Origin: Escherichia coli
Lineage (GTDB): Bacteria > Pseudomonadota > Gammaproteobacteria > Enterobacterales > Enterobacteriaceae
Strand: one strand, 5' to 3'
NCBI RefSeq assembly: GCF_003334255.1
Contig: NZ_QOWU01000025.1
Length of the DNA: 64,000 bases
The notes below the pieces were generated by a model. The model was not told where the DNA came from, did no database searches, and saw only the letters and a program-made list of their open reading frames with translations. Made by a program: the position numbers and the translations under genes. Of this stretch, positions 28,924-29,501 are shown one piece after another (within the stretch, counting starts at the first letter, position 1; each line of letters opens with the position of its first letter).

Positions 28924-29140
28924 AAAAATCACACAATAACTTTGAGATCGCAGATTGTTTTACTTTTACAGCATTCGTCCCCCCATTGTTGGGCAAATAT
29001 AGATTGGGCCAGAGCACGAAAGTTAATACCACGTTCGCACAGCTCCTCCAACAGCACGACAAGATGCCACATACTGCGCCCCAGTCGGTTCAGTTTACAG
29101 ACTAGCAGTGCGTTCCCTGCCGATGATGTCCTGACCAGTT
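28924..29140 (-). pseudogene. pinH: Fragment of a Pin/Hin-family serine DNA invertase (pinH-like remnant)
   Basis: Reverse-strand translation ...[37 protein letters not shown]... matches the conserved serine-recombinase core (VVWKLDRLGRS...ELRERGINFRSL); no start and truncated, different frame upstream. Confidence 0.5.
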
Positions 29141-29501
29141 TTTTCAGTCCGGACCTCCTGCCACGGTTTTACGTTGAAGTGGTAACCCTGAGCACGCAGT
29201 TCTTCAGTCAGGCGTGGTGCACCGTAACGCTGTTATTGCTGGGTAAGATCAAAAAACTTTCAGGCAGCTAAGGAAAGTTGAACCAGACATTAGATGAAAT
29301 ATTTCAACCAATTACAGCACCAATTCAGTCACTGCCAGCCCACCAAATAAATCAAGGGGTTACATGAAAACGTAGCCCCTTTTTCTTTGGTAGTGACACT
29401 AAAATGGATGTAGTGTGAAGAATAATCCCGTTTACTCAATCAATAATACATATTGTTTCAATCTACGTTATTATCTCTTTGTGAAAATTGCCATTTATTA
29501 A

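Follow-up and report, generated by a model that had tools for sequence, protein, structure and literature searches.

The interval studied here lies between ypjA and ypjB in a stretch of 64,000 nucleotides of Escherichia coli chromosome, which was analysed as a whole and is called the window below; the order of its genes is smpB, ssrA, ypjA, the interval itself, ypjB/ypjC, ileY, ygaQ, and glaH/lhgO. The 821 bases around the interval show 99.9% identity to K-12-like genomes. The features on which the analysis relies are the following, in window coordinates:

Within the 64,000-nt window, on the ssrA side: smpB.
23487-23849: ssrA (tmRNA).
24010..28590, minus strand: ypjA, coding for the adhesin-like autotransporter YpjA/EhaD, the downstream neighbour of the interval (from the ORF list and from the PGAP annotation of a 99.9%-identical K-12-like locus, transferred by offset).
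28620..28975, minus strand: the ypjA 5' block, comprising the leader, the ypjA start, and an annotated 39-aa ORF, paralogous to the ycgV 5' block (ymgJ region).
28999..29156, minus strand: pinH, the central piece (codons 42-94 of 184) of a small serine DNA invertase of the Pin/Hin/Gin type (from Pfam, PDB, PHROG, and the pinE alignment).
29160..29233, minus strand: an internal piece of IS3, nt 544 to about 613, from the transposase OrfB (from blastn and alignment to IS3).
29234..29251, minus strand: the first 18 nt of the IS3 left terminal inverted repeat (TGATCTTACCCAGCAATA), an exact 18/18 match.
29502..30293, minus strand: ypjB, the upstream neighbour of the interval, which is the C-terminal half of a YpjCB/DUF5507 gene.
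31626-31701: the ileY tRNA gene, beyond ypjB/ypjC and followed by ygaQ and glaH/lhgO.

Several observations concern the neighbours themselves. ypjB (263 aa) and ypjC (160 aa), at 29502-30875, are the two halves of one 484-aa YpjCB/DUF5507 gene, which is unbroken (484 aa) in other E. coli strains (L006 and L008); the intact YpjCB has a full-length match to PHROG 30093, a family of unknown function, and the PADLOC defence models gave zero matches for either intact YpjCB or the invertase fragment described below. Further along, ygaQ (alpha-amylase-family, 32261-34513) is broken into several ORFs in the window; in K-12-like strains its annotation is that of a pseudogene containing an internal stop, and in strain S1-SRB-02-B (L006, 10671-12923) that of an intact gene. 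About 120 nt 3' of the ypjB stop codon, a hairpin at 29354-29381, with a 10-bp GC-rich stem and T-rich flanks, could be the ypjB terminator or a bidirectional terminator.

The invertase relic is already known as a curated K-12 pseudogene. Indeed, the MG1655 RefSeq annotation places pinH (b2648) between ypjA and ypjB, at 2783065-2783304 on the minus strand, which corresponds by offset to 28929-29168 of the window, and the gene order ypjA, pinH, ypjB, ypjC, and ileY has been listed for K-12 (PMC10652928). PGAP annotates a partial “recombinase family protein”, missing both its N-terminus and its C-terminus, at 28998-29165 in every genome that we opened; the IS3 remnant has no feature in the MG1655 RefSeq or PGAP tables for this stretch. 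One should note that, in E. coli O157:H7, the name PinH designates another invertase, which is intact, has a mass of 22 kDa, and belongs to prophage CP-933H (PMC3936929); this double use may lead to confusion with K-12 b2648.

An earlier note, made from the letters of the window, had quoted two peptides from this interval, and both are present on the minus strand, with slightly corrected coordinates. The first one had been taken for the core of a Pin/Hin/Gin serine invertase, read from 28924-29140 and devoid of an N-terminal catalytic region and of a start codon. Entering the minus-strand frame at 29165 gives a 56-aa invertase-like reading, and the match to the Pfam Resolvase family (PF00239, E=4e-9) is confined to positions 48-103 of the 145 positions of the model. 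The best PDB matches are Gin DNA invertase chains (4m6f/3uj3, residues 41-95, E=6e-12), those to the gamma-delta and Tn3 resolvase structures being weaker (E=0.004-0.04, with gamma-delta at 0.004); the PHROG “DNA invertase” family is matched at E=3.6e-15; and tblastn against plasmids and phages retrieves intact genes annotated hin, pinE, or DNA invertase, with 66-74% amino acid identity. At the nucleotide level, 29156-28999 aligns without any gap to nt 124-281 of the 555 nt of an intact pinE (L016, 3878-4432), 131 of the 158 positions being identical (83%), while at the protein level residues 39-94 of the 184-aa PinE align with 70% identity. The retained piece is, in other words, the central 158 nt, or about 30%, of the gene, and its closest intact DNA relative among complete E. 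coli genomes is a pinE inside a prophage tail-fibre module.

The two ends of the gene are missing. The first ~41 codons of pinE, including the start codon and the catalytic serine in its YVRVSTNDQ motif, have no counterpart in the remnant; the DNA upstream of it is IS3, not invertase, and even weak invertase homology reaches 29165 at most. In gin and hin, the Fis-dependent recombinational enhancer lies within the first ~170 bp of the gene; with codons 1-41 deleted, most of this enhancer would therefore be gone as well. On the other side, the last ~85-90 codons, i.e., the E-helix and the helix-turn-helix DNA-binding domain, also lack a counterpart, the homology stopping around residue 94-102. 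No helix-turn-helix domain came out of the Pfam scan of the remnant, and its ORFs had no family match other than the truncated Resolvase domain. Allowing for a 4-nt deletion (SI....MGG(R)), a weak homology may extend downstream to ~28977, with only a few residues recognizable in 28977-28998. In the alleles with a readable frame, the conserved Asp of KLDRLGRS is replaced by Asn. On these homologies, the remnant is a relic of a Pin-family DNA invertase and not a working member of the family; judging from its sequence, what remains cannot encode a recombinase, nor can the adjoining piece of IS3 encode a transposase.

The downstream edge of the remnant is set by the ypjA 5' block, which is identical to the ymgJ/ycgV region of L005 at 318 of 356 positions (89%) in an alignment starting exactly at 28975; as the ycgV-paralogous block begins there, the invertase remnant ends there too (~28976). 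The 3' part of the range given in the earlier note, 28924-28975, consequently belongs to the ypjA 5' block and is not recombinase-derived: the note was right about the identity of the fragment and about its missing N-terminal region and start codon, and wrong about how far it extends. A second chromosomal copy of the ypjA 5' block region is seen in many genomes, PGAP annotates a small ORF in both the ypjA and the ycgV 5' blocks, and no recombinase is found alongside at the ycgV locus. Taken on its own, this 5' region of the autotransporter gene has the look of a module that was duplicated and that is sharply bounded on its upstream side.

Upstream of the invertase remnant lie two pieces of a single IS3, for which we used as the coordinate reference the complete 1258-bp IS3 from L003. 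The terminal-repeat stub (nt 1-18) is fused directly to IS3 nt 544, nt 19-543 being deleted, and the break points of this internal deletion have 9 of 13 bases in common, which is a microhomology; the element is broken again at about nt 613, with the IS3/invertase junction falling within 29157-29165. A blastn alignment of 29160-29246 to IS3 gives 78 identities out of 88 (89%, E=2e-28); the same stretch matches E. coli genomes at 88.6-90.9% (E=1e-21), in features annotated “IS3-like element IS3 family transposase”; and, with the 22-aa OrfB peptide as the tblastn query, matching IS3 copies are retrieved from about 1500 plasmids, with up to 95% identity. The peptide being so short, its NCBIfam match to the IS3 transposase is weak (E=0.039). 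The OrfB remnant counts about 23 codons and has a 1-nt deletion in an A run, which shifts the frame, so that the last 18 aa of the second peptide of the earlier note (about 29140-29260) are the invertase remnant read in the wrong frame. The proposal that this peptide is a transposase fragment holds for its IS3 OrfB part and fails for its tail. The IS3 right end, orfA, the frameshift site, and the DDE domain are all missing, 93% of the element being gone; therefore, the remnant can neither transpose nor be mobilised. The flank of the right end, where one copy of the 3-bp target-site duplication would stand, is deleted as well.

Read along the minus strand, the interval is made up of an 18-nt IS3 stub, about 70 nt of IS3 interior, about 160-190 nt of the middle of an invertase gene, and then the ypjA 5' block. 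We consider it very probable that this assemblage of IS3 stub, IS3 orfB piece, pinH, and ypjA 5' block is a non-functional mosaic scar, and we call it the scar hereafter.

The scar is widespread, the whole region being present in about 3000 of the 5426 complete genomes of E. coli (~55%). We aligned eight alleles, which diverge by up to 12% within the invertase remnant. In all eight, the IS3 stub, the internal deletion of IS3, its junction with the invertase, and the edge with the ypjA block are identical; as these junctions are common to divergent alleles, the scar predates the lineages that carry them. The 30 variable sites in the invertase frame are distributed 10/10/10 over the three codon positions, which indicates neutral drift; no purifying selection on the invertase reading frame was seen among the eight alleles, and no third-position excess appeared in any of the frames tested in them, including those of a 47-aa ORF and of an antisense 122-aa ORF considered below. 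The invertase frame is shifted in L009, and a stop is present in its tail in L006 and L008. With this codon-position split and these frameshift and stop codons, the statement of the earlier note that the remnants have since decayed is borne out. All the alleles are 82-84% identical to intact pinE, and at least one allele matches pinE in 140 of the 158 columns, a pattern expected of independent decay from a pinE-like ancestor.

No undecayed version of the locus was found. Two plasmid copies (H73 and H74) were considered as a possibly intact, closer version and turned out to be the same scar, one of them on a small IS1-flanked plasmid and the other in a chromosome filed as a plasmid. The record of the non-mobilizable plasmid pLR-25_3 (L007, NZ_AP027503.1, 13,989 bp) contains a copied segment of this part of the chromosome, in which one finds a portion of the scar, ypjA in truncated form, and a toxin-antitoxin pair of the CbtA/YeeU type; IS3 is also present there as a complete element and IS1 in two copies, one of which interrupts the scar within its IS3 remnant. 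A scan of 100,044 species genomes for the IS3/invertase junction, with an exact pattern that may miss diverged copies and is uninformative on other Escherichia species, gave two matches, both in assemblies from outside Escherichia and both to E. coli DNA with 99% identity. These are contig NZ_JAHZMP010000086.1 of Terrisporobacter mayombei DSM 6539 (L014, 539 bp), 98.9% identical to 28641-29179 of the window, and contig DEQI01000374.1 of the Planococcaceae MAG UBA3370 (L015, 2799 bp), 99.9% identical to 28873-31671; from this identity, it is almost certain that both contigs are E. coli DNA contaminating assemblies that serve as GTDB species representatives.

The position of the scar relative to prophage CP4-57 can be read from the window as well. 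In K-12, the CP4-57 feature ends before psaA (a 14-nt ssrA duplicate), upstream of ypjA; this prophage of ~22 kb, which adjoins ypjA in K-12, is absent from the strain of the window, where ssrA is followed directly by the ypjF-ypjA spacer and where homology to K-12 starts at 23835. Since ssrA is directly joined to this spacer, the site is an empty attachment site with the scar still present and, the scar being kept without CP4-57, pinH is not part of the excisable CP4-57 unit.

An invertase-family fragment located about 400 bp upstream of the gene of an adhesin-like autotransporter invites another reading, especially as adhesins are often phase-variable: the remnants could be a former or working invertible switch, phase-varying ypjA in the way Hin does fljBA. 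Such a switch needs crossover sites, and the earlier note had suggested looking for gix/hix-like inverted repeats flanking ypjA or its promoter. None was found beyond chance. A degenerate hix/gix 26-mer has one match in the whole window, at 12541, with 3 mismatches and for 0.43 expected; the crossover 16-mer of the e14 P-segment (taken from PMC12529663) has one chance-level match, inside the ypjA coding sequence; the AAACCNNGGTTT core has zero matches in 23000-31500; and the inverted repeats of this same region are scattered and chance-grade, with 71-89% complementarity. Pattern searches thus gave no pair of crossover sites bracketing ypjA or its 5' region. An Rfam scan of 28400-29700 at E<=1 returned nothing, and promoter and terminator scans gave the counts expected from shuffled sequence, the hairpin at 29354-29381 after ypjB excepted. 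Moreover, an 821-nt probe running through ypjA-5', the scar, and ypjB-3' is collinear in all the full-length matches listed (one of them split by IS1), the 5' block of ypjA is common to ycgV, which has no recombinase next to it, and the invertase itself is dead. A present-day ypjA switch is, on this evidence, largely refuted, and we hold the switch reading as a whole, former or working, to be very unlikely.

A different kind of influence on ypjA, which lies ~400-660 bp downstream, can also be imagined, the scar acting as upstream regulatory DNA or through a short peptide or an antisense transcript; we would give it only a very slim chance. Even less credit goes to the idea that the fragment still codes for something useful, for which there are two candidates, a 47-aa ORF at 28929-29072 (MWHLVVLLEELCERGINFRAL...) and an antisense 122-aa ORF at 28903-29271. 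Both are open in the window, and the second one is open in six of the eight alleles; however, their variable sites are distributed 7/5/4 (47-aa ORF) and 21/18/22 (antisense ORF) over codon positions, with no purifying selection visible, the antisense ORF is frameshifted in L009 and lacks its stop codon in L010, a new stop codon interrupts the 47-aa ORF in L006 and L008, and the sole family match is the truncated Resolvase domain. We find it just as hard to believe that the remnant comes from a transposon resolvase of the Tn3 or gamma-delta type travelling with the IS: the Pfam family is indeed that of a shared Resolvase N-terminal domain and a transposable-element fragment adjoins, but Gin matches far better than gamma-delta or Tn3 (E=6e-12 versus 0.004-0.04), the fragment is 83% identical at the nucleotide level to intact pinE, the best intact tblastn matches are annotated hin, pinE, or DNA invertase, and IS3, whose complete element shows two ORFs, is not known to carry a resolvase.

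The reading of the interval as a mosaic scar left by a Pin-family invertase gene and an IS3 copy suggests the following history. A pinE-like invertase gene would have stood at the locus, probably in a phage-derived module of the ssrA-ileY integration hot spot, and an IS3 copy with the orientation of the gene would have landed in its 5' part or on its upstream side. The right half of IS3 and the start and catalytic-serine region of the invertase (codons 1 to ~41) would have gone in a single deletion, and a second one, inside IS3 at the short microhomology, would have taken nt 19-543; at the boundary with the ypjA 5' block, the invertase would have lost its 3' half, with the E-helix and the helix-turn-helix. 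What was left has undergone neutral drift in E. coli. The analysis shows the map and the homologies, as well as the absence of the missing parts, the junctions common to the alleles, and this drift; the phage-module origin is one that we infer from the setting of the closest intact relatives. The order of the deletion events is not recoverable from the scar, and the one given here is likewise ours. The junctions themselves look like illegitimate deletions, IS3 being cut internally and at ~nt 613 and the invertase at codon ~41 and at codon ~95-102.

One has to keep in mind that what Pin-family invertases do is to invert the DNA lying between two 26-bp sites; islands are neither integrated nor assembled by them. 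Their remnants are therefore no argument for the assembly of the islet by site-specific recombination. The earlier note had drawn precisely this conclusion, that the islet was assembled or rearranged in this way, and it is not supported, with no crossover sites beyond chance, chance-grade repeats, and deletion-like junctions; the remnants rather point to a lost phage-type module, an IS insertion, and illegitimate deletions, in other words, to an ordinary erosion of mobile DNA. As for the rest of the note, the observation is confirmed, the homology searches that it had proposed as a check having returned significant matches to both recombinases and IS3 (the Pfam, Gin, and IS3 values given above); its interpretation is partly supported, the identification being largely correct and the evolutionary inference overstated.

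What the analysis brings is first of all a confirmation that the K-12 pseudogene pinH is a genuine Pin-family invertase relic. It adds that a 92-nt IS3 remnant, unannotated in the tables that we read, is fused to the 5' end of pinH, that the 3' end of pinH is set by the ypjA/ycgV block, and that the scar is located outside the excisable CP4-57 and is older than the split between the E. coli alleles that we examined. These details serve annotation hygiene and help to trace the past of the ssrA-ileY islet; they indicate no function and no new mechanism and, on the whole, matter little.

Compared with known systems, the scar shares with IS3 (1258 bp, IS3 family) nt 1-18 exactly and nt 544-613 of orfB at 89%; a working IS3 has both terminal repeats and the full orfA-orfB, whereas here the left stub is the only terminal repeat and the ORFs are reduced to this piece. 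With PinE, Gin, Hin, and Cin (prophage e14, Mu, P1, and Salmonella), the remnant shares residues 39-94, including the KL(D)RLGRS and ERGINFR motifs; unlike them, it is devoid of a start codon, the catalytic Ser, the E-helix, the helix-turn-helix, crossover sites, and an invertible segment. Its true equivalent is pinH (b2648) of K-12 MG1655, which is the same locus, with nothing essential different, our only refinement being that the last ~47 nt of the annotated pseudogene (28929-28975) are ypjA 5' block and not invertase.
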